Source: Prochlorococcus sp. AG-679-M23
Lineage (GTDB): Bacteria; Cyanobacteriota; Cyanobacteriia; PCC-6307; Cyanobiaceae
Direction of reading: 5' to 3'
DNA length: 64,000 nt
NCBI GenBank assembly: GCA_003208875.1
Contig: QCUR01000001.1
Location: 1-64,000, forward strand
This document shows positions 22,718 through 59,259 of the stretch, one piece after another. The notes beneath the pieces are model-generated. The model saw only the letters and a list, made by a program, of their open reading frames with translations. It had not been told where the DNA came from and made no database searches. A program made the translations under genes and the position numbers. The number at the start of each line of letters is the position of its first letter. Positions within the stretch are counted from its first letter, which is position 1.

Positions 22718-24304
22718 ATGAGTAAAAATTTACTAAAAAAAGAGAGAGATCCCTCAATATTAATTTTAGATTTCGGATCTCAATATTCTGAATTAATTGC
22801 AAGGAGAATAAGAGAAGCAGATGTATTTTCTCTTGTTGTTAGTAACTTTACCTCTATCAAGGAGATTCAGGATATTAATCCAAAAGGGATTATTTTAAGT
22901 GGTGGCCCAAGTTCTGTTTATGAAGATAATGCACCTAAATGTGACGCAAAGATTTTTGATTTAGGGATTCCAGTTTTGGGTATATGTTACGGAATGCAAT
23001 TAATGGTTAAAGAATTGGGAGGTGAAGTTACCCCAGCAATTAATAAAGCTGAATATGGCAGAGCACCAATAAATATTGATTGCGAAAGTGATTTGCTATC
23101 TAATGTCCAAGACAAATCTATTATGTGGATGAGTCATGGGGATTCTATAAATAACTTGCCTGAAGGATTTATTAAAATCTCTCATACAGAAAATACGCTG
23201 CATGCTGCAATATCAAACAAACAAAAGAAATTATTTGGTGTTCAATTTCATCCTGAAGTTATACATTCAGAATTCGGAATGACGGTAATTAAAAACTTTG
23301 TTTATTCTATTTCTAAATGTAAGGCCGATTGGACTACTGAAACATTTTTAGAGGAAACAATTCCAAGAATTAAGCAACAAGTAGGTGATAAGAAAGTTTT
23401 ACTTGCTCTTTCTGGCGGCGTAGATTCATCAACCCTCGCTTTTCTTCTCAATCAAGCTATTGGGAAACAACTTACTTGTATGTTTATTGATCAAGGCTTT
23501 ATGAGAAAAGGTGAACCTGAATTTTTAATGGAATTTTTTGATAAAAAATTTCATATTAAGGTTGAATATATTAACGCTAGGGAAAGATTTATTAATAAAT
23601 TAAATGGAATAACTGATCCAGAAGAAAAACGCAAGATTATTGGTAGAGAATTTATTAGAGTTTTTGAAGAGGAGAGTAATAGATTAGGCCCTTTCCAATA
23701 TTTGGCTCAAGGTACTCTTTACCCAGATGTTATTGAGAGTGCTGGAACGAATTTAGATCCTAAGACTGGTGAGCGAATTGCAGTGAAAATAAAAAGTCAT
23801 CACAATGTAGGCGGTTTGCCAAAAGATTTACAATTTAAATTAGTGGAACCATTAAGAAAACTTTTTAAAGATGAAGTAAGAAAGGTTGGGGGTGCTTTAG
23901 GATTGCCAGATGAAATTATAAAAAGACACCCATTTCCTGGTCCTGGCTTAGCAATAAGAATTTTAGGTGAAGTTTCTCATGAAAAACTAAACTGTTTGAG
24001 AGATGCAGACTGGATAGTAAGAGATGAAATAAAAAAATCAGGTCTTTATGATGATATATGGCAAGCATTTGCTGTTCTTTTACCTGTCAAGACTGTCGGT
24101 GTAATGGGAGACAAACGGACCTATGCTTGGCCAGTAGTTTTACGATGCGTATCAAGCGAAGATGGTATGACGGCTGATTGGTCGAGAATTCCTTATGAAA
24201 CCTTAGAGAGAATTTCTAATAGAATCGTTAATGAAGTAGAGCAGGTTAATAGAGTTGTTTTCGATATTACTAGTAAGCCTCCAGGAACAATTGAGTGGGA
24301 GTAA
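22718..24304 (+). CDS. guaA: GMP synthase (glutamine-hydrolysing)
   Basis: [29 protein letters not shown] and C-terminal KPPGTIEWE. Confidence 0.98.
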
Positions 24305-24540
24305 TTAAAGGGGTATAAAGTCAGTCATAGTCTAAAAAAAGCGGTTACACGTGGGTTACACGTGAGAATCTGTTATCCTATTTGCAATGGATCTCAACAG
24401 CGAGGTTACACGTGGGTTACACGTGAGGGTAAAATCTCATCTCTATAGAGAAATCGTATAAAAATAAATTTCTCTACACTTTCCACATTTTTATGGTTTT
24501 ATTTTCTGACTAATGGGTACTAAAGGAAAGGGTGCAAAAA
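24284..24540 (+). repeat. att site 1 (guaA end plus right arm)
   Basis: GAGTGGGA at 24293-24300. GGTTACACGTG x2 at 24343-24364 and again at 24404-24425. TCTCTATAGAGA at 24440-24451. Confidence 0.9.
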
Positions 24541-24593
24541 CTTATGAATTTTACGAAGAGTTACCCATGCTTTATGGAATTACTTATCCATAA
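24513..24593 (+). pseudogene. Truncated N-terminal gene stub (possibly the element's integrase)
   Basis: MGTKGKGAKTYEFYEELPMLYGITYP*. A homologous stub, MGIKGRNTKI*, lies at the same offset after att2. Confidence 0.35.
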
Positions 24594-24717
24594 AATATTT
24601 TCATTTATTTAAATAGAGGAATAAGATGAAAAGACTTAGAACAAAATTAGATCATTGGATTGCTAGAAATCCAAAAAAAAATGGTTTTTCTTTCGCGTCT
24701 GAAGAAATTGCATAATT

Positions 24718-25974
24718 GTGATGTTTTTTGGAGATTCTGCCTATCAAGTAAATCAAACTATTCACCCAACTGAATTATTGCCTGAATCTCCATATATTGG
24801 GTTGGAACATATTGAACAAGAATCTCTTCAACTAATTGGGATAGGAGACGCTTCAAAAGTTACTAGTAACAAAAGAATTTTCAGAAAAGGAGATATTCTT
24901 TTTGGAAAACTTAGACCTTACTTTAGAAAAGTTATAAATGCAGATTTTGATGGAATTTGTTCAACGGATATATGGGTGATACGTCCAAAAGAAAATATAG
25001 ATAGTAATTTTCTATATTATTGGTGTTCTAGTTGGGAATTCATAAATTTTGTAAATTCAGCAAGTGAAGGGACAAGAATGCCTCGAGCAAAATGGGAAGT
25101 TGCAATAAATCATGAAATTCCTAATCATACTTATGAAAACCAAAAGATAATTGGAAATATACTTGGTTCTCTTGATAAAAAAATACAACTAAACAAAAAA
25201 ACTAATTACACACTTGAAGAAATAGCGAAAGCACTTTTCAAATCATGGTTTATTGATTTCGATCCAGTAAGAGCAAAAGCAAAAGGACTTTCAACTGGAT
25301 TACCTGATGAGATTAGTGATTTATTTCCTAGTTCTCTAGAGAACTCTGAATTAGGAGAGATACCAAGTAATTGGAAAAAAACCTCAATTTCTCAATTGAT
25401 AGAAATAAACCCAATAAGAAAAATTACAAAAAATACAATTGCTCCATTTCTTGAAATGAAGGGAGTTCAAACTTATGGACATACTTCAAAGGGAGTTTAT
25501 GATCGCCAATTTACTTCTGGTACAAAATTTCAACAAGGGGACACCTTATTGGCAAGAATAACACCATGTCTCGAAAATGGTAAAACCGCTATGGTGGATT
25601 TTCTAGATGAGGGACAAATTGGATGGGGATCTACAGAATTCATAGTTCTTAGTGGTAAAGAAAAAATACATAATCCTTTTGTTTACTATTTATCTAGATC
25701 AGAAAAATTTAGAGAATATGCAATTAGAAATATGACTGGATCAAGTGGAAGACAAAGAGTTCCTCCCAATATTTTATATGATTTTAATATCGCAAAACCG
25801 CCAACTAATATCCTCAATTTATTTTCAGAAATTGCTTATTCATTTCTTCAAAAAATAACTATTGGATCACAAGAAAATAGTTCACTTGAAAAAATTAGAA
25901 ATACTCTTCTTCCAAAACTTATTTCAGGAGAACTTAGTACATTTGATGCTGCAAGAAAGATTCAAGATCTTTGA
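24718..25974 (+). CDS. hsdS: Type I restriction-modification specificity subunit (orphan)
   Basis: Two TRDs (KGDILFGKLRPY; GDTLLARITPCLENGK), conserved spacer QKIIGNILGSLDKKI..LEEIAKALFKSWF, and C-terminal RNTLLPKLISGEL. Confidence 0.9.
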   Translation: MMFFGDSAYQVNQTIHPTELLPESPYIGLEHIEQESLQLIGIGDASKVTSNKRIFRKGDILFGKLRPYFRKVINADFDGICSTDIWVIRPKENIDSNFLYYWCSSWEFINFVNSASEGTRMPRAKWEVAINHEIPNHTYENQKIIGNILGSLDKKIQLNKKTNYTLEEIAKALFKSWFIDFDPVRAKAKGLSTGLPDEISDLFPSSLENSELGEIPSNWKKTSISQLIEINPIRKITKNTIAPFLEMKGVQTYGHTSKGVYDRQFTSGTKFQQGDTLLARITPCLENGKTAMVDFLDEGQIGWGSTEFIVLSGKEKIHNPFVYYLSRSEKFREYAIRNMTGSSGRQRVPPNILYDFNIAKPPTNILNLFSEIAYSFLQKITIGSQENSSLEKIRNTLLPKLISGELSTFDAARKIQDL

Positions 25975-26054
25975 TCTACTTCTTCTATAAAAAAGTTTTT
26001 CTCTACAAAAAAATGATATTTTTAGTTGTCATTTGGTTGCTTTTGATGCATTTC

Positions 26055-26405
26055 AGTTACACGTGGGTTACACGTGAAGAAACCTGTCTTATTCTTCCCT
26101 CAAATCAACTGATATGACTATGTCTCTGGCAGTACAAATTCTCGTGACTATCGAGTGGGAATAACAGATAGGTTATAAACCTAGTTATAGGCGCAAAAAG
26201 TTGGTTTCACGTGGGTTTCACGTAGAATATTTACTACCTATTTGCAATGGTTTTCGATGGCGGTCTTTCACGTAAGTTTCACGTGATGCAAAAAGTCCGT
26301 CTCTATAGAGAAATCATAAAAGAACTTATGTCTCTACACTTTCTTTTTTTATAGAGCGATATTTTTTGATTTATGGGTATAAAAGGCAGAAATACAAAAA
26401 TCTAA
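26055..26405 (+). repeat. att site 2 (left arm, core and right arm)
   Basis: Arm pair at 26055-26076, core GAGTGGGA at 26153-26160 (VTIEWE*), arm pairs at 26203-26224 and 26264-26285. Colinear with att1 at offset 1860. Confidence 0.9.
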
Positions 26406-26607
26406 ATGGAGTTATAAATCCTTGAATTTACTTTTTTGCTTCAATTGATTCAGAAATCGTAACTAGATATCTATTTTGGATATATCTATTTGATTACTTT
26501 TATTAAAAATAAAAAAAGATACACAAAGTGTTTACCTTCAAGAAATTTAAGTCTTTATAAAGGTTGTCATTTAGAACATAAATGAGAATAAAATAATTTA
26601 CTTCAAA

Positions 26608-26637
26608 TAAGTGTGTATAAGGGTGTATATGTGTGTT
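26608..26637 (+). promoter_or_regulatory. Triple 10-bp direct repeat upstream of mreB (candidate operator)
   Basis: TAAGTGTGTA TAAGGGTGTA TATGTGTGTT. Confidence 0.55.
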
Positions 26638-26680
26638 ACTATAAAAGAAGTATTTAAATTTAGTAATTTTTAGTAGGTAT

Positions 26681-27733
26681 ATGTTTTGGAATAGATTTCA
26701 ATTTTCTAGAGACATAGGTATTGACTTGGGTACTGCCAATACTCTTATTCATGTATCTGGGAAAGGCGTAATTCTGGAAGAACCTTCTGTAGTAGCTATG
26801 GATTTAGAAGAGGGAACTCCTTTGGCAGTAGGTGAAGAAGCAAAATTAATGCTTGGAAGAACCCCAGGAAATATAAGAGCAGTAAGACCTCTAAAGGATG
26901 GGGTTATTGCAGACTTTGACGCAGCGGAACAAATGATAAAAACTTTTATTCAAAAATGTAATGAAGGAAAGGGTCTTTTAGCTCCAAGAATAGTTATTGG
27001 TATTCCAAGTGGCGTTACCAGTGTTGAACGAAGAGCAGTTCGAGAAGCAGGATTAGCAGGGGCACGGGAAGTCTATTTAATCGATGAACCTGTAGCTGCC
27101 GCAATAGGAGCTTCTTTGCCAGTAACGGAACCAATTGGAACTATGATCGTTGATATTGGCGGTGGAACAACTGAAGTAGCAGTATTGAGTCTTGGAGGAA
27201 CAGTTGTAAGTGAATCTCTTCGAATAGCAGGAGATGAAATAAATGAATCAATAGCTACCTATCTTAAAAAAAAGCATAATATGGTTGTTGGTGAAAGAAC
27301 ATCAGAAAAGATAAAAATTAAAATAGGTTCTGCTTTCCCTGATGACAGTTTTGACAATACATCTTTTGAAGTTAAGGGATTACACTTATCTTCCGGCTTA
27401 CCAAGATCTATTGCTTTAACTGCAGGAGAAATTAGAGAGGCTATGACTGATCCTCTTAGTAAAATAATTGAAGCTATAAAAAGAACTCTCGAGCGAACTC
27501 CTCCTGAATTAGCGGCAGATATTGTTGAGAGAGGAATCATGCTCGCGGGAGGTGGAGCTCTAATAAAGGGAATTAATGATTTAGTAACTCAAGAAACTGG
27601 AATTTTTACTCACATAGCAGAAGATCCATTGTTATGCGTAGTTAATGGCTGCGGAAATGTACTTGATGATTTCAGAAGACTTAGGAGGTGTGTAGACACG
27701 GTTGATTTAGGAACTAATTCAATAAGGACTTAA
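26681..27733 (+). CDS. mreB: Rod shape-determining actin homolog MreB (island copy, no adjacent mreC)
   Basis: IGIDLGTANT, RPLKDGVIADF, IDEPVAAAIG, DIGGGTTE and LAGGGAL motifs. Confidence 0.95.
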   Translation: MFWNRFQFSRDIGIDLGTANTLIHVSGKGVILEEPSVVAMDLEEGTPLAVGEEAKLMLGRTPGNIRAVRPLKDGVIADFDAAEQMIKTFIQKCNEGKGLLAPRIVIGIPSGVTSVERRAVREAGLAGAREVYLIDEPVAAAIGASLPVTEPIGTMIVDIGGGTTEVAVLSLGGTVVSESLRIAGDEINESIATYLKKKHNMVVGERTSEKIKIKIGSAFPDDSFDNTSFEVKGLHLSSGLPRSIALTAGEIREAMTDPLSKIIEAIKRTLERTPPELAADIVERGIMLAGGGALIKGINDLVTQETGIFTHIAEDPLLCVVNGCGNVLDDFRRLRRCVDTVDLGTNSIRT

Positions 27734-27834
27734 TTACTTTTCTGATGAATTTTTTACTAGTAAAAACTAGATAAAAAATCATACTTTAATAAAAAAATTC
27801 TTTCTTTTAATATCCACTGAGAAACAATTTAAAA

Positions 27835-27993
27835 ATGAATCAAGAGCAAAGAAAGAAATTACCTAATAAAAAAATAATTCGCTCAGCAAAATTTGAAGCA
27901 AAAGAACAATTTACCAAATCTGCATTAGAAAATTTAAAAAATGAAAATGAAAGAATTGTTAATTCATTAAAAGAATCTGGTGAAATCGATTAA
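27835..27993 (+). CDS. Small hypothetical protein (52 aa)
   Basis: Hand-translated MNQEQRKKLPNKKIIRSAKFEAKEQF...ESGEID*; below the ORF-track cutoff. Confidence 0.5.
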   Translation: MNQEQRKKLPNKKIIRSAKFEAKEQFTKSALENLKNENERIVNSLKESGEID

Positions 27994-28054
27994 TTAAATA
28001 AAGAACTTTCTACATGATTTATTAAAGCCTAAACGAAGAAAAATTTAAGATTTA

Positions 28055-28411
28055 TTATTTTTCTAATAAATAAAATTTCTCTTCACCAACTTTGTCTGGT
28101 TTCACTATTTTACAACCTTTATCTTTTTCTAAATCGCAATCTTTCGAGGCAGCAACTGTTTTCCATGAACAAACTTTTTCTTCTGAGTATTCTTGTTTAA
28201 TCGTCCACCCATCGTTGATATACTTTTCGAGATTACTATTTTCTCCACATGAAACTGTAATTTCAATACTATTTTCTTTTTTAATACTTTCTTCTGATGA
28301 TTGTATTCCAAAACTGTTTTTAATTTCAGTCGCTTTTTTCTCCAATATTTTGCAACCGCCAACTAGAAATAGGATCATAAATATATAAAGTAATTTTTTA
28401 TATTCTTTCAT
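28055..28411 (-). CDS. Predicted lipoprotein, Cys-rich
   Basis: Signal peptide with lipobox LVGG-C; ATGA overlap with the upstream ORF. Confidence 0.75.
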   Translation of the reverse strand: MKEYKKLLYIFMILFLVGGCKILEKKATEIKNSFGIQSSEESIKKENSIEITVSCGENSNLEKYINDGWTIKQEYSEEKVCSWKTVAASKDCDLEKDKGCKIVKPDKVGEEKFYLLEK

Positions 28412-30033
28412 TTATCTATCATGCAAGTATTAAATTTTCTATTCGCTGTTTCTGTAAAGCCAAGATCCAAAAACTTTATGTAGTCACTATTTTTGTCCTT
28501 ACATATTTTTTCTTTGTTTTCAATTTGTATTTTTCTCTGTTCTTGAATTAATATTTGATTTCTGAAGTTCTCGATAAATTTATAAATATATGGAATAGTT
28601 GCTATGAAGAATCCAATAAAAAATGAAAAAGCAAATGCCGAAGTATATTTTTTAGAGTTATTTTTAAGACTAATTTTTGCAAAATAATTATTTAGTTTAA
28701 ACATAATTTTAATTTTTTTTTTAATTACTATCGCTGCTCCAATTTCTTGTAATTTTGTAGAGAAATTTTCGTATCCTCTTTCTAAATGCTCTACCCCTCC
28801 AATCAAAGTTGTCCCACCTGCTGAAAGTCCTGCAAGAGCCAATGCAGCCGAAGCTCTTAAATCAGATCCTAGAATTACACTTCCTTTTAAGTTTTCAACC
28901 CCGACTACTGTTGCAATATTATCTTTTAAAGTAATGTTTGCCCCCATACGATTTAGCTCTTTAACATGATGCATTCTATTTTCAAATACTGTTTCTTTAA
29001 TTTTTGAAATACCATTTGCTGTTGCCATTAAAGCCATAAAAGGTGCCTGTAGATCAGTTGGGAAACCAGGAAATGGACTTGTCGTCATATCAACTGAATT
29101 TAAAATTTGATTGGGAATGATTTTTAAACAAAAATCTGAATATTCGAACTTGCAGCCACAAAGTTCTAGTTTGTTAATTACTGCTTTTAAGTGATTTGGT
29201 TCGCATGGGAAAAGACTAATTGTTGATCTTGTTATTGCCGCAGCAAGTAAAAAAGTACCTGCTTCAATTCTGTCAGGTATTACTGTGTAATCGCATCCTT
29301 TTAGGGATTCAACTCCTTCAATTGTTATACATTCAGATCCCGCACCTTTTATTCGTGCACCCATTAGATTCAACATGTTTGCTAAATCTACAATTTCTGG
29401 CTCCTCTGCTGCGTTGTTTAATATAGTTTTCCCTTTAGCTAAAGATGCTGCCATTAATAAAGTCTCAGTGGCACCTACACTTTTGCATTGAAAATTGATT
29501 GATGATCCCAACAATCTTTTTTTGGGATTAATTACTTTAGCTATTAAATAATTATTTCGGTATTGAAATACAACTCCTAATTTTTTCAGTGAATTTATAT
29601 GTTCATCGATTGGTCTGGATCCTATCGAACATCCTCCCGGTAAGGGTATCTTAGCTGTTCCAAATCTTGCAAGGATTGGACCAATACAAAAGAAACTCAC
29701 TCTAAGGGCATGATATAAATCAAAAAATAAATCTTGAGGTGGAATGATAATTTCTTTAGTATTTATTGTTAATTGATTTGTATTCGATTTTATATTTATA
29801 CCCATTGCAATTAATAATTTAGACATAATTGCAACATCTGAAATTTGAGGAACATTAAAAAGATTTATTTCGCCTTTAGAAAGAATTGACGCTGCCATTA
29901 GGACTAGAGCAGAATTTTTAGCACCACTAATTTTTAAATGCCCTTCAAGGGGGTTGCCTCCTTTTACTTCGATATAATTTTTGAAAAAGTAATCGACTCT
30001 AGGGGGTTGAAGAGTTTTATTTTGTATTTTCAT
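28408..30033 (-). CDS. murA: UDP-N-acetylglucosamine 1-carboxyvinyltransferase with an in-frame ~100-aa membrane-protein extension
   Basis: GAKNSAL, LPGGCSIGSRPID (active-site Cys), PDRIEAGT, FPTDLQ, DLRASAAL and RGYE motifs. The extension begins at an internal ATG at 28704. Confidence 0.92.
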   Translation of the reverse strand: MKIQNKTLQPPRVDYFFKNYIEVKGGNPLEGHLKISGAKNSALVLMAASILSKGEINLFNVPQISDVAIMSKLLIAMGINIKSNTNQLTINTKEIIIPPQDLFFDLYHALRVSFFCIGPILARFGTAKIPLPGGCSIGSRPIDEHINSLKKLGVVFQYRNNYLIAKVINPKKRLLGSSINFQCKSVGATETLLMAASLAKGKTILNNAAEEPEIVDLANMLNLMGARIKGAGSECITIEGVESLKGCDYTVIPDRIEAGTFLLAAAITRSTISLFPCEPNHLKAVINKLELCGCKFEYSDFCLKIIPNQILNSVDMTTSPFPGFPTDLQAPFMALMATANGISKIKETVFENRMHHVKELNRMGANITLKDNIATVVGVENLKGSVILGSDLRASAALALAGLSAGGTTLIGGVEHLERGYENFSTKLQEIGAAIVIKKKIKIMFKLNNYFAKISLKNNSKKYTSAFAFSFFIGFFIATIPYIYKFIENFRNQILIQEQRKIQIENKEKICKDKNSDYIKFLDLGFTETANRKFNTCMIDK

Positions 30034-30036
30034 AAA

Positions 30037-30300
30037 TTAAAAGTCTTCAAGGTTTGTCATTGATGAAGAACAATATCGTTTTTGAGAAGCTAAATCCCCG
30101 ATTTCCCAGCAACTTTTTATTTCAACATTATTTTCAGGAGATGAAAACTTTATTATTAATGGTGATTGATTTGTATTAGTTAAATCGAAGGCATTAACAC
30201 TTTTGTTCCTACCGAGAGATGAAGCTGCCGGTTTTGTTTGTTCTAAAAAAGCTAAAGGAAGAAAAAATAGAAGCGTTGTTAATACAGTTTTCTTATTCAT
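30037..30300 (-). CDS. Small exported hypothetical protein
   Basis: Signal-peptide-like N-terminus and a Cys pair; ends 3 nt upstream of the murA start. Confidence 0.6.
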   Translation of the reverse strand: MNKKTVLTTLLFFLPLAFLEQTKPAASSLGRNKSVNAFDLTNTNQSPLIIKFSSPENNVEIKSCWEIGDLASQKRYCSSSMTNLEDF

Positions 30301-30540
30301 TTTTAATTACTTTGAATAATTCATTTTCAAAATGATTCATTATTTCTGATGTCTCAAAAATAAAGATTTTAAGATTTGATCAGTCCAAGTATTAATAGAT
30401 TGCTTTTTAAGAAAGCATTACTTTCTAAGGTTTTTAACTGAGCAAATAATTGTTTCACTGAAGAATTAAATAAATGCTAAAAAACCTTTGACTGTTGTGA
30501 TCCCCATCACCACTGCCTCGCAGATGTGTCTCTTAATAGT

Positions 30541-30570
30541 TACACACTTATACATACTATAACACACTTT
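30541..30570 (-). promoter_or_regulatory. Triple 10-bp repeat (candidate operator) in the divergent promoter region
   Basis: TACACACTTA TACATACTAT AACACACTTT is the reverse complement of the mreB-upstream motif. A further exact TAAGTGTGTA lies at 30677-30686. Confidence 0.55.
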
Positions 30571-30716
30571 GAATATTTGTTTGTTATTTGGATATCATGA
30601 TATAACCTATAAATAACAATAAACATTTAAAGTTAATTTGCCGGATTAGTATTAATAAATACTATTTGTTATACTATAAGTGTGTATCGTTTTCTGTAAT
30701 TTACATTAATCAACTA

Positions 30717-31187
30717 ATGCCTACTAAGCTTGATAGGGTACAGGTTCTTTTTCAGAAAGAGTTATTTAAAAAGCTTAAGGTAATTGCAAAAATTGAGCGC
30801 AGATCGTTATCTAGTATGGTTGGAAGCATTGTAGAAGATGCAATGAATTCTAAAAAATATCAATCTCTTTTATCGAAGGCAAAGTCAGATGATTTAAAAT
30901 CAAAAATTGATGAAAGTAAATTCTTAATTAATGAAATTTTAAAATCTAAGAGTTCAAATCAATCAGATATTGATGAAAATTCTAAATTAAAACAAATTGA
31001 AGATATACTCTCTTTAATATCAGAATCTCATAAAGAATCATTGGAGGAATCAGTGGGAAAAGATTTATTATTAGTAGAAGAAGCTTTGAAACCAGACGGT
31101 TTAATTGAAGAATTAGAATTGGAAACAGATTATAAGATTAATAAAATGAATGTAATGCTCAGTAAAATCAATAAAAATAAGGATTAA
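30717..31187 (+). CDS. Ribbon-helix-helix (CopG/Arc-like) DNA-binding protein with an acidic helical tail
   Basis: MPTKLDRVQVLF (beta strand), KELFKKLKVIAKIE (helix), RRSLSSMVGSIV (helix). Confidence 0.7.
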   Translation: MPTKLDRVQVLFQKELFKKLKVIAKIERRSLSSMVGSIVEDAMNSKKYQSLLSKAKSDDLKSKIDESKFLINEILKSKSSNQSDIDENSKLKQIEDILSLISESHKESLEESVGKDLLLVEEALKPDGLIEELELETDYKINKMNVMLSKINKNKD

Positions 31188-31209
31188 ATTCGACACTAAG
31201 AGATAAATA

Positions 31210-31524
31210 ATGAATAAATTTGAAAAAATGGAAAAGAGAATGGATGAGTGGCAGAGCGGAATAAGAATTCTCTATAAAGATATCCAAACAATCCGTAACT
31301 GGACGGATGAGCAGGTTTGGAAAGAACTTGAAAATGAGATAAAAAGAATTACTCCTGAGGGTCAATTTGGCGAGGACGACTTGGCTTGGACCAGAGAAAT
31401 TCTTACATCAAAAAGAGATGTTACTTTATGGGAAGCGGTAAGACTTACTATTAGATTTAAACATTCAACGCCTCTGTTAGATGCTCTTGGTAATCTTAGA
31501 GCTCGAGATAAATCTGGAACTTAA
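31210..31524 (+). CDS. Hypothetical protein (paralog A)
   Basis: 104-aa ORF that aligns by eye with 31589-31897. Confidence 0.75.
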   Translation: MNKFEKMEKRMDEWQSGIRILYKDIQTIRNWTDEQVWKELENEIKRITPEGQFGEDDLAWTREILTSKRDVTLWEAVRLTIRFKHSTPLLDALGNLRARDKSGT

Positions 31525-31588
31525 ATATCTATTATGTTTTTTTATAAGCAAATAGAAAATAAGTTTTTTTCAAGAATTTATTTATAGT

Positions 31589-31897
31589 TTGACTAAATTT
31601 ATAGATACATCTGGTTTTGATAATGTCGAACAAGTCAGAAAATGGTATCTAGGTATTCAATCAACTTTTAAGCAAATACAGCAACAAAATAATTATGATA
31701 AAAAACAAGCTTGGGATAAATTAAAAATAGAATTACTTAAATCAGTTGCAAAAGAAGATTTTGTACAGAATGATCTTGAATGGGTTGAAGATCTCCTTCT
31801 TCATGAAATAATTCCAACTACTGAAGAAGCCTGTAGATTTGAAAAAAAATATCCTAATCAAACTCCTTTAATTGATGCGCTTGCCAAAATCTTCTAA
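31589..31897 (+). CDS. Hypothetical protein (paralog B)
   Basis: 102-aa ORF with a TTG start. Shares W..GI, QxW, DLxW, EAxR and TPLxDAL with paralog A. Confidence 0.75.
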   Translation: MTKFIDTSGFDNVEQVRKWYLGIQSTFKQIQQQNNYDKKQAWDKLKIELLKSVAKEDFVQNDLEWVEDLLLHEIIPTTEEACRFEKKYPNQTPLIDALAKIF

Positions 31898-31909
31898 TTT
31901 ATTTTTGAT

Positions 31910-32848
31910 TTAAATAACACTTACCCCTGTAAACGTTTTGATATTATCTATAGTTTTTTTTGGAGTTTTTATAAGATCTTCATATGTAACTTCTATTAAA
32001 TTGTCCTTAGGAATAAGATTTTTCATTATTTGCCATTTATCTAATATGAAGGATCTAGTAAACTTTGCATCTTTCTCTGCGTTCCCAAGATATGGAATAA
32101 AACCAAATTCTTTATTAAATGATTTGATAGATTTTTCTATACTTTTCACATGATCGTATTTACGTTCAATGTAAATAAATTTTGAGTTGGGAAATAACTC
32201 AAGTAATAAGTCAACTCTCGTTGTAAATGCTGGAGCTTTATTGATAAAAACTTTTCCAGGTAAACCATCATGAATCCATGCCCATTCAAGAAGTAATTTT
32301 AATTTTTTTTTGAAATCTAATGTAGCTTTCCATTTGTACCATCTTTCTAAATCCTTAGATAATGACTTTCCAAGACCAATTGATGTTGGAGGATGTTCGC
32401 AACTCAATCTCATTAATGCAATATCTAACTCTTGAGGTCCCTCTGCTAATAATGGGACCCAATCAAAAAATCTATTTTTATAAGATGGTATAAATTTGCG
32501 AAAAAGTTCTTTAAATATTAAGGCTGCCTGAGGGCAACATGAAAACGTATTTTTTATTGTAGCTGCTTTAGTAGCTTTAACTATTTCTGTGTGGAGGTAT
32601 GTTGTTCCACTTCTCCATGCACCTATAATAAAAATTGGATCAGGCATATTCTTTGGCTTCTTGTAAAGAATTTTTTGCAACCAATAAAGAGGTTCAGCCA
32701 ACCAACCGAGTACAATATTCTGGAATAAATAAAAAGAAATAATAGGAAATCTATTAGCTTTTTTTAACAACTCAAACTGAACAGAAGGTCTTAAGCATCC
32801 AATAATAATTAAGCGTGGATTGAAAAACAATAATCTATTTATATTCAA
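31910..32848 (-). CDS. Sulfotransferase family protein
   Basis: PIFIIGAWRSGTTYL 5'-PAPS-binding loop, INKAP, FPNSKFIYIER and VTYEDL..P motifs. Confidence 0.85.
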   Translation of the reverse strand: MNINRLLFFNPRLIIIGCLRPSVQFELLKKANRFPIISFYLFQNIVLGWLAEPLYWLQKILYKKPKNMPDPIFIIGAWRSGTTYLHTEIVKATKAATIKNTFSCCPQAALIFKELFRKFIPSYKNRFFDWVPLLAEGPQELDIALMRLSCEHPPTSIGLGKSLSKDLERWYKWKATLDFKKKLKLLLEWAWIHDGLPGKVFINKAPAFTTRVDLLLELFPNSKFIYIERKYDHVKSIEKSIKSFNKEFGFIPYLGNAEKDAKFTRSFILDKWQIMKNLIPKDNLIEVTYEDLIKTPKKTIDNIKTFTGVSVI

Positions 32849-32980
32849 AATAAAGATTATCTATGGAACTTTCGATAAGTCAATCAGTACTTATTTCTTT
32901 TGTAAGATACTCAAACTAATCTTTACATCTCTATGAAAGTAAAGTAATAAATATTTTTTCTTAAGGTTCGTTGCCTACTA

Positions 32981-33254
32981 GGTTTCACGTGGGTTTCACG
33001 TGGCGGAATACGTGTTATAATATGTTCAGACCCATTGATATAACTGTCTTTTTTATTAACCTTTTTGGAGGGACTATTGAGTGGGAGTAACTAAAGAGGT
33101 ATAAACCTTGTCATAGTCTAAAAAACTCGGTTAAACGTGAGAATCTCTTATCCTATTTGCAATGGATCTCAACAACGAGGTTAAACGTAGGTTACACGTG
33201 AGGGTAAAATCTCATCTCTATAGAGAAATCGTAGAGTTTTAAATTTCTCTACAC
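32981..33254 (+). repeat. att site 3 (left arm, core and right arm)
   Basis: GGTTTCACGTG x2 at 32981-33002, core at 33079-33086 (GTIEWE*), arm repeats at 33129-33139 and 33179-33200. The right arm is nearly identical to that of att1. Confidence 0.9.
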
Positions 33255-33263
33255 CTTAATAAA

Positions 33264-33581
33264 TTAGTTAATTATTTTTTTAATTTTTTCTAAATTCCAT
33301 TTATCAAATATTAATTTCATTTCTCTTTCGTAGTATCTTACTTTTTTTGAGAAAGGTAGTTGTTGAATAATTATCCCAAAGGGAAATTTAAAAAAAGAAG
33401 AAACATAAACAATATAAAACTCGACAAATGAAGGTTTTGGTGGGAGAGGTAAATTTTTTAAATATGCCCAATCAATGCATGGTTTTAGTTGCTGATCACT
33501 AGCAGCAATATTTTTTCTACATCTCCAGTAAGAGAATAGATAAATGCCAATAAAAATCGGTAAAGGAAGAAGTCGTAACAT
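33264..33581 (-). CDS. Hypothetical membrane protein
   Basis: 105-aa ORF with hydrophobic segments. Confidence 0.6.
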   Translation of the reverse strand: MLRLLPLPIFIGIYLFSYWRCRKNIAASDQQLKPCIDWAYLKNLPLPPKPSFVEFYIVYVSSFFKFPFGIIIQQLPFSKKVRYYEREMKLIFDKWNLEKIKKIIN

Positions 33582-33741
33582 TAAATATCAAGGATGATTT
33601 TTCTTCTCATTTACTCATATACCTGTTTGATAATAAATGGATAGTTTAGTTTTTATGGAAATTTTGCTTAAATGATTTTTAGAATTTTCAATTATTTTAT
33701 GCGATATCTCTATACAAATCTCCTAGATTTTTAAATCAAAA

Positions 33742-33927
33742 TCATTCAAAAAGTATTTCTTCAGGATTTCTGTATTGAATTAAACCTTCATATTCTGAAT
33801 CAACCTTTTTAAGATATTCTGCTACATGCTTATAACCTTGATCAAAAACAATTTCAATAACCAATTCAGCAAGTTTTTTGCCATTAATTAACAAAAGAGG
33901 ATATTTATCTTCAAGAATTTCAATCCT
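33742..33927 (-). pseudogene. C-terminal fragment of an Mrr/AspBHI-like restriction endonuclease
   Basis: Startless frame RIEILEDKYPLLLINGKKLAELVIEIVFDQG...RNPEEILFE*. EDxYPLLLINGxxLAE resembles the end of the Mrr catalytic domain. Confidence 0.5.
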
Positions 33928-34000
33928 TTATCTGTTTTGTGAAAAGAAATAGTGTGTAAAAATCACACTGAATTGAAATCTTTTTCATTAGATTAAAAGA

Positions 34001-34070
34001 ATCAGAAACTCCTCACACACTAATTTCTGATCACTAAACGCCCCGATTCGAAAGAATTAGGGTGTTTTTT
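34001..34070 (+). ncRNA. Yfr1-motif small RNA (Yfr1/Yfr10-like)
   Basis: Conserved ACTCCTCACAC at 34008-34018 inside the stem ATCAGAAA/TTTCTGAT, then a GAAA-loop terminator hairpin and T-run. TAGATT -10 at 33989-33994. Confidence 0.8.
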
Positions 34071-34170
34071 AATGCAATTAAGTCTTTTAGGTCGTAACTG
34101 GTATATGTGACAATTAAGTATTATTACTCACCCCTTCCACGAAAAAGAAAGATATGTAATGAATATTTTT

Positions 34171-34267
34171 GTGTGTAGGAGAGGTTTTGCTGAAACAGTG
34201 GAAACAAGGAAACACTTGATTTAGTAAAACCAGGAAATGACCTCTATAAATAGGGATCTTTTTTTTT
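34171..34267 (+). ncRNA. yfr2: Yfr2-family small RNA
   Basis: 5' GTGTGTAGGAG, stem GGTTTTGCTGA/TTAGTAAAACC enclosing the GGAAACAAGGAAACA loop, then a terminator hairpin and T-run. Ends are approximate. Confidence 0.85.
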
Positions 34268-34509
34268 GCCTAATTTTTTCGAACGAATACTTAAATTTAA
34301 ACAAAATAAAGGGGGATTTGTTTGCCCCTTTCGATTCTTATGTAATCATTATCTAAAAAGTCGGTGAGTGCTACTTACTCCTGAATTATTTCTACTCCTG
34401 TTGAATGGGAAAATATAGTCGTGACAACCACAAAGCACTTCTATTCGAGTAAAAATACTCTATGAATTTTTAGTTAATAGGTAGAAAATAAAGATATATA
34501 GGAGGTTTT

Positions 34510-34692
34510 ATGAAACTATTTAATCAATTTAATATCCTTCCAAAATATTTAACGGCATTTAACTATGCAGGTTTAAATCTGAATGAAACTCCAAACGAAC
34601 TTGAGCAATGTCCTATAGAGTTTCAAACTTACTGGGATAAAGAATGTAGGGATAATCCAACTAATCAGAATTGTTTAATTTATTGCGACTGA
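34510..34692 (+). CDS. Small protein with a CP12-like C-terminal motif
   Basis: Strong RBS AGGAGG; ends YWDKECRDNPTNQNCLIYCD. Confidence 0.7.
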   Translation: MKLFNQFNILPKYLTAFNYAGLNLNETPNELEQCPIEFQTYWDKECRDNPTNQNCLIYCD

Positions 34693-34736
34693 GTTATTAA
34701 TTTTTATTATTTATCTAATAAATTTTTTTAAAAAGT

Positions 34737-35003
34737 GGTTTCACACGGGTTTCTCACGAGATAATATTTAAAATTATCCCTTGAGATACACTGCTATGAC
34801 TGTATTTTTAATTTTAATTATTGGCGGTAACATAGAGTGGGAATGAAAATAAGCTATAGACCTAGTTATAGTTAAAAAAAATAGGTTTCAAGTAGGTTTC
34901 AAGTAGGTTTCACTTAGAAAAATTTGTGTTATAATTAACTCAAAACCATTGCTATAACTAATTTTTTATTCACTTTTTTGGAGTGACTATTGAGTAGGAA
35001 TAA
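34737..35003 (+). repeat. att sites 4 and 5 (collapsed empty unit and terminal attR-like site)
   Basis: Arm pair at 34737-34758, core at 34835-34842 (GNIEWE*), arm triplet at 34884-34916, and degenerate core GAGTAGGA at 34992-34999. Confidence 0.85.
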
Positions 35004-35047
35004 AAAATACTTTAATTTTTTATCTTTAACTTTTTTACAAAATTATT

Positions 35048-35761
35048 ATGGATGAAACCATTAAATTAAGTAGGTCTACTGTTGAAAAATATCTTAATTG
35101 CCCTAGATGTTGCGTTCTTGATAAAAAACATAAAATAAAACCTCCATCATTACCATTCACCTTAAATATTGCTGTAGATAATTTATGTAAAAATGAGTTT
35201 GATTATTATCGTGAAAGACAGGAATCTCATCCTTTATTTATTGAGCATAATATTGATGCTGTACCTTTTAAACATAAAGATATAGATATTTGGAGAAGTA
35301 ATTTTAAAGGAATAAGATATAAATCTACTGAACATAATTATGATTTTGGTGGTGCGGTCGATGATGTCTGGGAAAAAAAGAATGGAGAGTTAATTATTGT
35401 TGATGTAAAAGCAACATCTAGAAATAATTTTGATTGGTTTGAAACTTTCAATAAATATGATTATGCAAAAGCATATAAAAGACAATTAGAAATGTATCAG
35501 TGGTTATTTAGAAAAAATGGTTTCAAAGTTGCAGATGAAGCCTATCTTCTTTATTTTAACGGAAAAAAGAATGAGAAATTTTTTAATAATCAGTTAAAAT
35601 TCGATGTGCATTTTATTAAGTTAAAGTGTTCTGCGACATGGGTAGAAGGCAAAGTTATTGAAACAGTAAAACTGCTCAGATCTAATATGTTCCCTTCACC
35701 ATCTTTTAAATGTGAATATTGTAATTATTTAAAAAAGCGTTGGCAGTTGTCACAAAATTAA
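35048..35761 (+). CDS. PD-(D/E)XK nuclease superfamily protein (RecB/AddB/Cas4-like)
   Basis: LSRS..YLNCPRC, GAVDD, IVDVK, QLEMY and C-terminal CEYC motifs. Confidence 0.85.
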   Translation: MDETIKLSRSTVEKYLNCPRCCVLDKKHKIKPPSLPFTLNIAVDNLCKNEFDYYRERQESHPLFIEHNIDAVPFKHKDIDIWRSNFKGIRYKSTEHNYDFGGAVDDVWEKKNGELIIVDVKATSRNNFDWFETFNKYDYAKAYKRQLEMYQWLFRKNGFKVADEAYLLYFNGKKNEKFFNNQLKFDVHFIKLKCSATWVEGKVIETVKLLRSNMFPSPSFKCEYCNYLKKRWQLSQN

Positions 35762-56385: not shown

Positions 56386-56539
56386 TTGTATTGAGAATTT
56401 TTAATACGTTAAAATATTTTTTTCGTAATCTTTTCAGTATTTATACTCATAAAATTCAAAAAATAATTTCTAATACATTCTTTTGAAGTAAATTTTACAA
56501 ATTAACAAATTATCTAATACCAAACTTGGTCAATTTAAA

Positions 56540-56800
56540 ATGGTGGAGCCCTTCCAGGCTCCTTGGATCACTTGGTTGATAAGGCTGATATCACCCCATC
56601 TCCTTTGAGATCAAGCAGCAACTGGTGCTGTTTGACGGGAGAAACTAACGATTTTGTTAGCGTTTGTGTTTTTGCTCTAACCGAGCAGGCTTCAGTCATC
56701 TTCCTTACGCCCCGTCGAAACCATTACAACCCCAAAAGGAAATGGAGTTGAGCGGAATCGAACCGCTGTCCGAAACATCGGTTGAGATCACCTAGTCCAA
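56540..56800 (-). ncRNA. ssrA: tmRNA, circularly permuted two-piece form
   Basis: The piece ending GGTTCGATTCCGCTCAACTCCA (CCA at 56743) precedes the piece starting GGGGTTGTAATGGTTTCGAC (56733). Tag ANKIVSFSRQTAPVAA* at 56661-56611. Outer ends are approximate. Confidence 0.93.
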
Positions 56801-56870
56801 TTGGACATTTATATTCTGGCAGGCAAAATGAGTATTGAATAGTTATTTCATTAATTTTTTAAATATATAT

Positions 56871-57995
56871 ATGTATGTAATTGCATCATCACCTGAAGGT
56901 TTAGAAAAATATTTAGCAAGTGAAATTATTGATTTGGGTGGATTTAATATTAATACCTATAAAAGATCAGTTTCTTTTGAATGTGATTATGCCACTTTTT
57001 ATAGAATTCATTTTTTTTCAAGAGTTGCGTTTCGTTTTTATAGAGAAGTTGCACGTTTTGCATGCTCCGACAGGCTTTCTTTATATGAGGGAGTTAGAGA
57101 TTCATTTGACTGGTTAAAATGGTTACCTTCTGAAAAAACATTCAATGTTCAAGTAACCGGCAGAACTTCATCGTTAAGTCATTCTCATTTCACGGCTCTC
57201 GAGGTTAAAAATTCAATTACAGATCTCCAAAAATCTGTTTGGAATAAAAGATCTAATATTTCTTTAGATAATCCTGATTTGATAGTTCATTTACATTTAA
57301 ATAATGATCGTGGGGTTCTCAGTCTGCAGAGCACTTTTGAAAGTCTTCATAAAAGAGGCTACAGACCTGCTATTGGAGATGCTCCCCTTAAAGAAAATTT
57401 AGCTTCTGGTTTATTAAAAATGACTGAATGGAAAGGAACTAAACCTTTGGTTGATCTTATGTGTGGTTCGGGAACCTTTTTAATAGAGGCTATTAATCAA
57501 ATCCTTGAAGTTCCACTTAAATCTCAACAATTTTATCTTTTCGAAAATTGGCTCGATTTTAATAAAAATATTTATCTAGAAGAGAAAAGTAAGGCTCAGA
57601 AAAAAGTTATTGCCTTTGAGAAATTATCACAAATTATTGGTTGTGAGATTAATAAAGATGTTTTTGATCAAGCAAAAGTCAACATAAAACTAGCAGGACT
57701 TGAAAATTATATTCAATTACAAAATGATGATTTTAAAAATATTCAATTTAAATCTTCAGAAGGATTAGTTTTATGTAATCCACCTTATGGAAAAAAACTA
57801 GGTGATGAAAACGAATTAATTACTTTATATGAGGATATGGGTGAATTTTTGAAGAGAAATTTTTCTGGTTGGGAATTCTGGTTACTAAGTGGGAATCCAA
57901 AACTTACAAGATATTTAAAAATGAAATCTTCTTTAAAAATACCGGTAAGCAATGGAGGTATTGATTGTAGATGGATTAAATATTTAATAAGATAA
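56871..57995 (+). CDS. THUMP-domain RNA methyltransferase (RlmL-like)
   Basis: SLHKRGYR, APLKENLA, DLMCGSGT and CNPPYG motifs. Confidence 0.9.
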   Translation: MYVIASSPEGLEKYLASEIIDLGGFNINTYKRSVSFECDYATFYRIHFFSRVAFRFYREVARFACSDRLSLYEGVRDSFDWLKWLPSEKTFNVQVTGRTSSLSHSHFTALEVKNSITDLQKSVWNKRSNISLDNPDLIVHLHLNNDRGVLSLQSTFESLHKRGYRPAIGDAPLKENLASGLLKMTEWKGTKPLVDLMCGSGTFLIEAINQILEVPLKSQQFYLFENWLDFNKNIYLEEKSKAQKKVIAFEKLSQIIGCEINKDVFDQAKVNIKLAGLENYIQLQNDDFKNIQFKSSEGLVLCNPPYGKKLGDENELITLYEDMGEFLKRNFSGWEFWLLSGNPKLTRYLKMKSSLKIPVSNGGIDCRWIKYLIR

Positions 57996-57996
57996 T

Positions 57997-58383
57997 TTAT
58001 TTTTTTCCTAATACTGCTTTTGTTGTTTTCCCCAACCCCTCTATTGTCTGGGGTAGATAAGGTCCTTTAGCTAGTTTTCCTCCAAGCTTTAAGCTTAAAC
58101 CTGCAAGAAATAAATCAACAAATATTATTAAAAGTAAATTATATTCTGTCGCCCAATTATTACTCTTACTAAGAGTGAGATAAAAAATAATATGAATACA
58201 AATTAAAACTAATAATAATAAAATTCCACCTATCGCAATAAATACTCCCCCACTTATTAATCTTCTCTTTTCTCTATCGACTTCTTGAAGTGCTATTCGG
58301 ACATGCAAATCCATTACAGAACTCGCGATTGCAGAGATTCTTGAAGCTGTATTGGCAAAGTTTTTGTTTTTAGGTTTATCCAT
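57997..58383 (-). CDS. Two-TM membrane protein (YqjE/holin-like superfamily)
   Basis: IALQEV followed by two TM helices; adjacent to an ElaB/YqjD-like gene. Confidence 0.7.
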   Translation of the reverse strand: MDKPKNKNFANTASRISAIASSVMDLHVRIALQEVDREKRRLISGGVFIAIGGILLLLVLICIHIIFYLTLSKSNNWATEYNLLLIIFVDLFLAGLSLKLGGKLAKGPYLPQTIEGLGKTTKAVLGKK

Positions 58384-58845
58384 TTATTTATTTCTACTAT
58401 TAATTAAACTACCTATAAATAATCCTATACCAGCAGCAATAGCAATAGATAAAATTGGTTTTTTTCTAATTGGGGTTTCTATTTTTGGCCTTAATGTACT
58501 GTTCAGTTCATCTAGTAACTCTTCTAATTGACTTTCGATTGGTGCTATTTTATCTGCAATTTCCCAATTATTTTCTTGAATTGAATCAATGATTTGAAAT
58601 AATTGATTTTTAATACCACTAGCAGATGATCCAGTATGGCTTGCTATTACTTCAACTAAATCATCAATACTCCCTTTTGCAGTCTCAAGAGTTTGTTGTG
58701 CAATATTAGGCCATTTTTCTTGTATTAACGGTATCAAACTATCGATTTTTTCACGCAACCATTTTTCTGATATACCTTCTTCCTTTGGCAGTGCAGAATC
58801 ATCAATTGTCTCTTTAACTTCTTTGGGAGGATGAAAAGCTTCCAT
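58384..58845 (-). CDS. ElaB/YqjD-like tail-anchored protein
   Basis: C-terminal IRKKPILSIAIAAGIGLFIG motif. Confidence 0.75.
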   Translation of the reverse strand: MEAFHPPKEVKETIDDSALPKEEGISEKWLREKIDSLIPLIQEKWPNIAQQTLETAKGSIDDLVEVIASHTGSSASGIKNQLFQIIDSIQENNWEIADKIAPIESQLEELLDELNSTLRPKIETPIRKKPILSIAIAAGIGLFIGSLINSRNK

Positions 58846-59034
58846 TAATCCACCAGCATTTCTTTTAGAGTAGTTCGTATTTTCTTAATTTGAAACCCTT
58901 CTATTTAGATTTGTTTTTAATAAAAAATTATCGACATATAAAATTTTATTTACATTTCATTTATCTCCCCTGTTCTGTAATAAGGTTTTGTTAAGCTATT
59001 ACTGACTTTATTAAATTAAGTTTTTTATTTCATC

Positions 59035-59172: not shown

Positions 59173-59259
59173 GTTTTTCCTTTTTTAAGATGCGCTAACT
59201 TGTTAGCTCATCTTAATGATTGATTATTTATATAAAATAATTTATTGATGTACTAGATA

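Follow-up and report, generated by a model that had tools for sequence, protein, structure and literature searches.

The DNA considered here, called the window, is the first 64 kb (64,000 nucleotides) of contig 1 (QCUR01000001.1) of Prochlorococcus sp. AG-679-M23, a source genome of 1.65 Mb in 16 contigs with a completeness rating of 99.99%. In the window, the gene guaA, which encodes GMP synthase (528 amino acids; open reading frame at 22718-24304, + strand), is followed by a tandem array of four units. The array is an island of 10.7 kb, which would have been built at one attachment site, the last 15 nucleotides of its target gene guaA. It has probably arisen by tandem accretion of integrase-deleted derivatives of self-replicating integrative elements that insert at the end of guaA. 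Below, G-numbers are genomes of the genus, of which 285 were searched, and L-numbers are extracted loci, with L107-L186 being loci from metagenomes.

The 15 nucleotides that end guaA are the core of every attachment site. The word ATHGARTGGGAR has four matches in the window, at 24290, 26150, 33076 and 34832, each on the + strand, and a fifth copy of the core, at 34989-35003 (ATTGAGTAGGAATAA), carries a single change, TGG to TAG. The distances between successive cores, 1860, 6926, 1756 and 157 bp, are the lengths of units 1 to 4, and the reading frames at the cores end in VTIEWE*, GTIEWE*, GNIEWE* and VTIE*E*, with asterisks for stop codons. The first four sites, all on the + strand, were located by core match: site 1 (24290-24304, core ATTGAGTGGGAGTAA), with guaA to its left and the right arm of an element to its right; site 2 (26150-26164, core ATCGAGTGGGAATAA), at the junction of units 1 and 2; site 3 (33076-33090, core ATTGAGTGGGAGTAA), at the junction of units 2 and 3; and site 4 (34832-34846, core ATAGAGTGGGAATGA). 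Site 5, on the same strand and located by alignment with empty sites, is made up of the decayed core and 44 nucleotides of host flank (34989-35047 in all) that reach the next gene. This gene encodes a PD-(D/E)XK or Cas4-like nuclease, as judged by domain search (35048-35761, + strand), and is a conserved right flank, present in 126 of the 141 genus genomes searched for it.

The cores are accompanied by arms. A left arm of about 110 nucleotides is found at sites 2 to 5, and a right arm of about 190 nucleotides at sites 1 to 3, with a short version at site 4. Site 1 has a right arm only, site 5 a left arm only, and the inner sites have both. The repeat comparison that gave this distribution confirms what a preliminary description of the same DNA had reported; the core recurrences, unit sizes and end peptides listed there were all reproduced, and domain and sequence searches agree with its statement that the cargo genes of units 1 to 3 are unrelated to one another. 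Core and arms, the latter carrying paired repeats of 11 bases, make up an attachment site of about 240 bp in total. The arms of different units are 70-95% alike, and when the 1.65 Mb of the source genome are scanned, arms are confined to the guaA locus.

When a probe of 282 nucleotides, comprising arms and core, is used to search the genus, it matches 102 of the 285 genomes, and 38 of the 92 that are of good quality. This bears on the simplest account of the repeats, namely that they arose by chance or by local duplication of the end of guaA, and that no mobile element was ever involved. Only the low complexity of an A+T-rich genome speaks for such an account, and it can be given practically no credence: there are four matches to the core word where 0.14 are expected from shuffles (at least four matches occurred in none of 100 shuffles), the copies share an architecture of about 240 bp, and the same sites recur in the 102 genomes.

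Attachment sites and empty sites

The anatomy of the sites was compared in about 30 loci from other genomes of the genus, a non-random sample picked from search hits. In these loci, 11-mers in directly repeated pairs lie on both sides of the 15-nucleotide core, ATTGAGTGGGARTAA, at the fixed offsets -95/-84, +39/+50 and +100/+111. A palindrome of 12 nucleotides, TCTCTATAGAGA, lies about 135 nucleotides to the right of the core and is nearly invariant among right arms; its copies in the window are at 24440-24451 and 33215-33226. It is situated about 60 nucleotides upstream of the position at which the integrase gene starts, and may be an operator or promoter element.

The 11-mers themselves come in types. 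The right (P') arm of unit 1 (24305-24512, + strand), to which the first copy of the palindrome belongs, has GGTTACACGTG 11-mers at 24343, 24354, 24404 and 24415, and its left (P) arm (26040-26149, + strand) has AGTTACACGTG and GGTTACACGTG at 26055 and 26066, so that the two ends of unit 1 share the GGTTACACGTG type. In unit 2 the GGTTTCACGTG type is found at either end, with 11-mers at 26203, 26214, 26264 and 26275 in its right arm (26165-26480, + strand) and with GGTTTCACGTG twice, at 32981 and 32992, in its left arm (32966-33075, + strand). Both ends of unit 4 (34847-34988, + strand) are of GGTTTCAAGTA type; this unit is free of cargo, and the 11-mers of its right arm run directly into those of its left arm. 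In unit 3 the types at the two ends are unlike. Its right arm (33091-33260, + strand) has one 11-mer deleted, and its left arm (34722-34831, + strand) carries a different type, GGTTTCACACG; from its repeats, unit 3 may be a chimera.

Of 16 distinct units taken together, 13 have 11-mers that differ by no more than one mismatch between right and left arm, while none of 9 cores has agreeing 11-mers on its two sides; among random pairs the agreement is 17%. The 11-mers would thus have diversified between element lineages, and would mark which two ends belong together.

In three genomes (G034, G150 and G191) the site is empty: the guaA stop codon is followed by 44-45 nucleotides and then by the nuclease gene. 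The 44-nucleotide flank of these genomes recurs unchanged on the right of site 5, and their flanks are 95-97% identical to those of the window. Since the flank after site 5 equals the flank after guaA where the site is empty, site 1 is read as attL, site 5 as attR, and sites 2 to 4 as junctions between one element and the next. The guaA product of the window is 90-98% identical to those of relatives across the last 199 residues, and the reading frame of the gene is kept after insertion. To the left of the core, the element copies imitate the last guaA codons, and guaA stays intact because every element supplies its own copy of them.

Unit 2 (26165-33075) is the sole insert in G147, G069 and G077, where it is 96.8-99.5% identical to the window. 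In G074 it follows directly after guaA on a contig that ends inside the unit, and in G068, at 98.7% identity over 6.9 kb, it is placed between guaA and a different unit. At both ends of unit 2 the switch from shared to unshared sequence falls inside GAGTGGGA, with switch points within 8-11 nucleotides of the core, so that the boundaries of cargo in other strains coincide with the cores, as would be expected from the preliminary description. Arrays with four or five cores are present in G194, G118, G207, G062 and G116. A scar of 111 nucleotides separates guaA from the nuclease gene in G189 (L079, 2054-2164): it has no second core, and consists of the start of a right arm fused to a left arm, after which the host flank begins. 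From this follows that deletion between repeats is a further way in which units are lost.

The unit that stands after unit 2 in G068 (L093, 14331-14450) has a right arm with quite different, GTTTATAACACAC-like repeats, which hints at further arm classes outside the repeat pattern used here.

Integrase-bearing relatives and their free forms

Two integrases close to guaA arms came to light in a Pfam scan of the genus for integrases. A tyrosine integrase begins 210 nucleotides after the guaA stop codon in G194 (454 amino acids) and 203 nucleotides after it in G118 (457 amino acids), and in G153 and G190 the integrase starts at 204 and 222 nucleotides. With the G194 protein as query, close homologues (E <= 1e-80) are found in 5 of the 285 genomes, the fifth being G184, in which two small open reading frames intervene between the core and the integrase gene. 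The proteins of the family are 454-491 amino acids long. An intact integrase about 220 bp past the core had been predicted for relatives of the array, and in four of the five genomes it is found there, at 203-222 nucleotides. Two further genomes (E <= 1e-10) have integrases that are 23-24% identical to that of G194 and lie elsewhere in the genome.

Apart from the integrase, the elements encode a Rep-like protein, with a weak match to REP_ORF2-G2P that is below the Pfam cut-off, and a protein of 314-327 amino acids that belongs to no known family. A DUF5906 or P4-primase-like protein of 631-663 amino acids is present in the elements of G118 and G184, and a small serine recombinase (Resolvase match) in those of G194 and G118. 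The 314-amino-acid backbone protein is confined to guaA elements, in 4 of the 285 genomes. An attempt to link the guaA elements through its gene to tycheposons, mobile elements described from the same host genus, failed, since the gene is restricted to guaA elements.

Matched repeats of their own type flank four of the five integrase-bearing elements: TTTCCCGTG in G194, TTTGTTGCG in G118, TCTCACCC in G184 and ATCACACA in G153. In G190 the right arm is of ATCACACA type, and the left arm at the nearest downstream core has a different repeat. When only the first 110 residues of the integrases are compared, the proteins of G153 and G190, which go with the same 11-mer type, are 60% identical, and the remaining pairs 35-56%. 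In the catalytic part the trend is the opposite, with G194, G118 and G184 being 66-67% alike and G153 and G190 51%. The paired 11-mers are therefore most likely arm-type sites, as predicted from sequence, for the N-terminal domain of each lineage's own integrase.

The array of the window contains no integrase gene between 24305 and 35003, and tblastn with the integrases of the relatives gave one stump of 20 codons there. That the array lacks an integrase, as first described, is confirmed for this interval, apart from two stumps. In the nearly complete source genome no homologue of the family integrase was found; its Pfam integrase hits are a frame of 390 amino acids, which corresponds to a 389-amino-acid type found in most genomes of the genus, and a frame of 190 amino acids (E 8.8e-4). 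The window was also searched for what might be left of the other genes of the backbone (Rep-like, 314-amino-acid, helicase-like, resolvase), with hits at noise level only.

The first stump, in unit 1 (24513-24593, + strand), was identified by tblastn and by alignment to L109. It begins with MGTKGKGAKTYEFYEELPML, encoded at 24513-24572, which agrees at 65% with the first 20 residues of the G194 integrase (E 0.015). The 114 nucleotides at 24459-24572 are 99.1% identical to the start region of L109, a metagenome contig with an intact integrase. When the stump is followed along the integrase gene of L109, the two sequences differ by a single mismatch as far as about codon 20 and diverge thereafter; beyond that codon L109 continues like the integrase gene of G194, and the window does not. 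The second stump belongs to site 2, with a spacing from the core equal to that of the first: from 26373 onward the right arm of unit 2 holds a decayed integrase start, MGIKGRNTKI*, which is common to the copy of unit 2 in G147 (by alignment) and to the copies in G068 and G074 (by scanning). By alignment there is no integrase start after the right arm of site 3. Right arms of the common 11-mer class, to which those of G118, G184, G153 and G190 do not belong, were scanned in 58 distinct versions: one is followed by an intact integrase, seven by stumps (two of these being near-identical copies of unit 2), and the remaining 50 have no trace of an integrase within 300 nucleotides. The stumps show, for units 1 and 2 only, a decay from an autonomous element. 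The earlier suggestion that the units were left after integrase loss accordingly stands for units 1 and 2, and has no stump to its credit in units 3 and 4.

Free forms of the elements were sought in metagenome contigs by scanning with an alignment of the five integrases, which gave 80 loci with 37-98% identity and a G+C content of 28-54%. A candidate junction was taken to be a core and then at least three repeats, and 67 were found in the 80 loci. Among them, 42 have the same 11-mer in both arms, 11 have guaA at the left, 9 are too short and 5 are spurious, so that the junctions of excised form are 42 of the 58 that could be judged. Because neighbours in an array never share an 11-mer type (0 of 9), a junction with the same type on both sides is best read, from its repeats, as the excised attP form. 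Seven metagenome contigs have identical ends, with overlaps of 47-127 nucleotides, and the circular contigs of the family are 5.6-10.6 kb long. L107, with 8353 unique nucleotides and a single core, is a circular permutation of the integrated element of G194, to which it is 97.2% and 95.6% identical. The preliminary description had proposed to look for excised circles, and for the integrase-bearing relatives circular or excised forms are in this way seen, in 42 junctions, seven contigs with overlapping ends and L107; for integrase-less units none were seen. As many as 30 of the 80 metagenome loci are above 45% G+C, and their guaA C-terminus, where present, is picocyanobacterium-like, and the integrase family probably extends beyond low-GC Prochlorococcus. 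Among the viral contigs of IMG/VR neither the G194 integrase nor the five-integrase alignment found a relative, and the pattern of core plus right arm had no match either, so that this collection gave no sign of packaged forms.

An island of this kind could also be of the replacement type, exchanged by homologous recombination through conserved flanks and intergenic modules, in which case the guaA ends would not be recombinase sites. Homologous recombination is frequent among HLII cells, where the accessible part of one report describes tracts of 0.5-59 kb between cells that are 2-8% apart (10.64898/2025.12.29.696893), and arms that are 70-95% alike are usable as homology. Such an exchange does not account for an integrase at a fixed distance from the core, for a free form that is a circular permutation of an integrated element, for an exact empty site and switch points within 8-11 nucleotides of the core, or for 11-mers that are common to the two ends of a unit and not to neighbouring units. 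These findings contradict an origin of the array by homologous recombination, and we consider this reading of the island very improbable.

Tandem accretion of integrase-deleted derivatives remains the explanation that we hold to be probable, and the interpretation offered in the preliminary description is for the most part supported. Consider an intact member of the family, which exists both integrated behind guaA and as an excised circle. When such an element arrives at an occupied locus, it would recombine with any core already in place, and elements would stack. All four units of the window would then have lost integrase and replication genes while keeping both arms, of about 100-200 nucleotides; in units 1 and 2 the genes would have been lost through internal deletion or replacement, and in unit 4 everything between the arm repeats would be gone. 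The array would at present be fixed cargo, because the source genome is without a cognate integrase, and this cargo comprises an alternative HsdS, a group of mreB2, murA2 and sulfotransferase genes, and two small RNAs (sRNAs). Direct support comes from the site anatomy, the empty site, the presence and absence of units in relatives, the integrase-bearing relatives, the circles, the stumps and the unit-specific 11-mers; the binding of integrase to the 11-mers, the position of strand exchange and the order of insertion we infer.

Several observations weigh against accretion. The compared loci were drawn from search hits and are a non-random sample. Unit 3, without an integrase stump and with unlike 11-mers in its arms, is of less clear origin, and the co-variation of 11-mers with the integrase N-terminus rests on five proteins. 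Terminal overlaps and same-type junctions could stem from head-to-tail concatemers or from tandem copies. Finally, none of the cargo genes of the window is present on the 80 integrase-bearing metagenome loci, and the entry of cargo into the units is left unexplained.

Cargo and spread of the units

The cargo of unit 1 is a gene for an HsdS-like specificity subunit of a type I restriction-modification system, 418 amino acids as called (24718-25974, + strand), recognized by Pfam (Methylase_S) and PADLOC (Specificity_I, E 5.7e-106). The source genome has a resident HsdS, the gene of which adjoins hsdM at about 167.7-170.1 kb of contig 3 (L104, L102). The two proteins are near-identical in their central and C-terminal conserved regions and differ in their target-recognition domains, with an overall identity of 35%; judged by this comparison, the unit 1 protein could be a second specificity for the resident system. 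Upstream of the gene, at 24627-24716, there are a short open reading frame and a run of nine A, and a frameshift of the true N-terminus is suggested.

The cargo of unit 2 includes five genes. A second mreB (26681-27733, + strand, 350 amino acids), found by domain search and comparison within the genome, is 87% identical to the other copy, on contig 2. By the same means a second murA was found (28408-30033, - strand, 541 amino acids), which is 53% identical to the copy on contig 6 and has about 100 additional C-terminal residues. Co-linear with it is an open reading frame of 118 amino acids without a known Pfam family (28055-28411, - strand), kept along with unit 2 in relatives. The remaining two genes are for a ribbon-helix-helix (CopG-like) protein of 173 amino acids (30666-31187, + strand; RHH_5, E 6.3e-6) and a sulfotransferase-family protein of 312 amino acids (31910-32848, - strand; Sulfotransfer_3, E 5.9e-22). 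Cargo with mreB and murA, about 82% identical in DNA, is also present behind guaA in G001 and G022, and mreB alone in G124; in G152 there are fragments directly before the right-flank gene.

Between its two arms, unit 3 (33091-34831, + strand) has small open reading frames (33264-33581, - strand, and 34510-34692) and two sRNA genes, Yfr10 at 34001-34080 (Rfam, 79.5 bits) and Cyano-1 at 34169-34236 (Rfam, 69.9 bits). Both matches exceed the Rfam gathering scores, and from their position within unit 3 follows that sRNA genes travel as cargo of the guaA site.

How unit 2 has spread can be judged from its copies. Those in G147, G077, G074 and G068 are 98.7-99.6% identical to the window, while the guaA and right-flank genes of the same carriers are 83-97% identical to it. 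In terms of guaA, identity to the window is about 97% both for the genomes with an empty site and for the carrier G147, and about 93% for the carriers G069 and G068. From this pattern of carriers and non-carriers follows that unit 2 has been gained or lost several times. Its spread fits an integrase acting in trans, and equally fits homologous recombination. Transfer of unit 2 to G068 from a distant clade, suggested by a right flank with 83% identity, was rejected, as the guaA of G068 is 89-97% identical to that of the window; it is closest to the guaA of G069, and G068 is a mosaic.

A further proposal, compatible with tandem accretion and adding to it, is that the integrase-less units are working non-autonomous cassettes, which are excised, re-inserted or exchanged once a visiting episome of their own 11-mer class supplies its integrase; array and episome pool would then be a distributed system of cassette exchange. 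We regard this as possible and rather doubtful. It would be in keeping with the state of units 1 and 2, which retain both arms with all repeat positions intact, and with the numbers of arms and integrases, the former in 102 and the latter in 5 of the 285 genomes, with a single one of the 58 common-class right arms preceding an intact integrase. The copies of unit 2 share their decayed stump and are 98.7-99.6% identical while their flanks differ by 3-17% and they stand in three sets of neighbours, and by guaA the carriers are not the nearest kin of the window (about 97% for empty-site genomes, about 93% for G069 and G068). Candidate helpers exist: metagenomes hold integrase elements of the unit 1 class (GTTACACG) in L110, L111, L119, L126 and L184, and of the unit 2 class (TTTCACGT) in L143, L144, L124, L136 and L137. 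There is also a precedent, in that the integrase of GIsul2 moves the integrase-less CR2-sul2 at the same guaA core, as told in the accessible text (PMC9376610). On the other side, an excised form of an integrase-less unit was never seen, in a metagenome scan that was based on integrases, and the source genome has no cognate integrase. Going by their stumps, at least units 1 and 2 may have entered as autonomous elements, and the recombination tracts of 0.5-59 kb noted for HLII could alone spread unit 2 (10.64898/2025.12.29.696893, as far as its accessible part goes). In G068 the guaA bordering unit 2 on its left has its nearest match in the carrier G069, which fits co-inheritance, or transfer together with the flank.

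Sequencing runs and metagenome contigs give a picture of how common the units are. At least half of the sampled words of 24200-34100 are present in 18 runs from 9 studies, with shares of 0.53-0.66 that are compatible with unit 2 alone, which makes up about 0.70 of the interval. In contigs of two metagenomes the depth of unit 2 is about 40-160 over its middle and 3' part, and higher over mreB2, and that of unit 1 is 0-6: in the metagenome contigs examined, unit 2 is common and unit 1 rare. Mapping of two raw-read runs to the array yielded 7 reads from one and 5 from the other. In none of the four runs examined was one end of a unit seen joined to its other end; rare circles would have escaped detection in these data. 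The runs also contain a few joints of low depth that go back and include foreign letters, and these are not interpretable.

A related suggestion, no firmer than that of working cassettes and likewise tentative, is that the 11-mers are address labels, so that each integrase lineage excises and exchanges only cassettes with its own label, including those that have long been integrase-less. If this were true, the guaA site would be an integron-like exchange run by free circular helpers without a resident integrase, and it would be explained why arms outnumber integrases in the genomes by about 20 to 1.

Elsewhere in the window there is a transfer-messenger RNA (tmRNA) gene at 56520-56832, beside which are an N6_Mtase-like frame (57414-57812) and faint integrase-like similarity at 59266-59460 and 60734-60964 (E 0.07-0.3). 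The region 56520-61000 may be a second island, at a target described for tycheposons.

Significance and comparison with known systems

To our knowledge, Prochlorococcus has neither plasmids nor conjugation nor natural competence, which raises the question of how its flexible genes are moved. The answer described, the tycheposons, is tied to transfer RNA (tRNA) genes in the part of the account available (10.1101/2020.12.28.424599). With the guaA locus there is also a target that codes for protein, and the small replicating elements that use it form a distinct family. The locus links autonomous circular parents in metagenomes to integrase-less cargo units in a chromosome. The unit-specific 11-mers are a simple candidate for a recognition code, and the cargo is of interest in itself, because it holds a spare specificity subunit fitting the type I system of the genome, mreB and murA each for a second time, and two sRNAs already known. 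As mobile DNA the guaA-targeting elements are of a known kind, within which they form a new family. A full-text literature search for Prochlorococcus, guaA and integrase, judged by titles and with the published version of the tycheposon work outside it, gave nothing on the subject.

For tycheposons, the preprint text names seven tRNA or tmRNA targets (10.1101/2020.12.28.424599), in line with the earlier statement that they mainly target tRNA genes; guaA has 0 occurrences in that text, outside of which are the supplementary lists of sites. The guaA elements resemble tycheposons, as these are described there, in their host genus and, by kind of gene, in the combination of a tyrosine recombinase, a primase/helicase module and a small serine recombinase. 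Likewise shared are tandem elements split by partial targets, degenerate elements with fragmented integrases, and cargo related to ecology or defence. A recombinase together with replication genes is present in the elements of G194, G118, G184 and G153, and absent from the units of the window. The guaA elements are unlike tycheposons in their target and in the 314-amino-acid backbone protein found only in them (4 of 285 genomes), and their integrase is less than 25% identical to the two other genus integrases with E <= 1e-10, the tycheposons being compared by their description in the preprint.

The 3' end of guaA, with GAGTGGGA, is an insertion site of islands in Proteobacteria (PMC7775301, PMC9376610), and the available parts of these two papers bear out the preliminary description, which had called it a known integration hotspot. 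Islands of GIsul2 type insert, as those of the window do, in the last guaA codons, with the core GAGTGGGA within ACAATNGAGTGGGAAT, and in both systems a tyrosine integrase stands beside the site and internal copies of att bound an integrase-less sub-unit; in experiments the GIsul2 integrase moved such a sub-unit, CR2-sul2, at the guaA core (PMC9376610, in its accessible part). A P4-type integrase with an adjacent alpA gene, typical of those islands, is not found here: an alpA-type gene was not recognized, and the open reading frame of 78 amino acids behind the G118 integrase is without a Pfam family. Further differences are the picocyanobacterial hosts, the lineage-specific paired 11-mers and the common arrays with up to five cores. 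When the integrase of the relatives was compared by tblastn with 72,556 plasmid records, there were three weak hits, none of them on guaA islands, and in the plasmid and phage collections, through which alone the comparison was made, no GIsul2-like record came up at E <= 1e-3. Because the integrase of the guaA elements is without similarity to those of the proteobacterial islands in the collections searched, the shared target looks convergent, and the common core is probably a case of convergence through the conserved C-terminus of guaA.

The attachment sites are similar to an attP of lambda type, in which a short core has about 100 nucleotides on one side, 130-200 on the other, and direct repeats at fixed positions. 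The integrase is long, like that of lambda, with an extra N-terminal region, for which binding to the arms is a prediction here. Unlike in lambda, arm repeats of many specificity classes go with a single core and a single target here, and these classes stand side by side in arrays. With integrons the array has in common that promoter-poor cassettes, mostly of a single function, are stacked at one site and each bounded by recombination sites. It is unlike them in having no resident intI, attI or Pc, in sites of about 240 bp with core and arms in place of attC hairpins, and in that the guaA cassettes derive from autonomous elements. The label 'integron-like', given to the array at first, is then a loose analogy that holds for stacking at one site and not for the resident integrase, attI or attC, the sites being lambda-like.

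In the model of cis-mobilizable elements (CIMEs) and site-specific accretion, as set out in the accessible part of its source (PMC5704250), an element integrates, decays while it keeps attL and attR, and is followed by a next element that integrates at an att site, from which an array results. The parents of the guaA units are unlike those of the ICESt1/ICESt3 type in being small replicons without transfer genes, rather than conjugative elements, and their arm repeats are lineage-specific. The three steps of accretion are the same, and the units of the window are, as in that model, bounded by att sites and without genes for integration and for transfer or replication.

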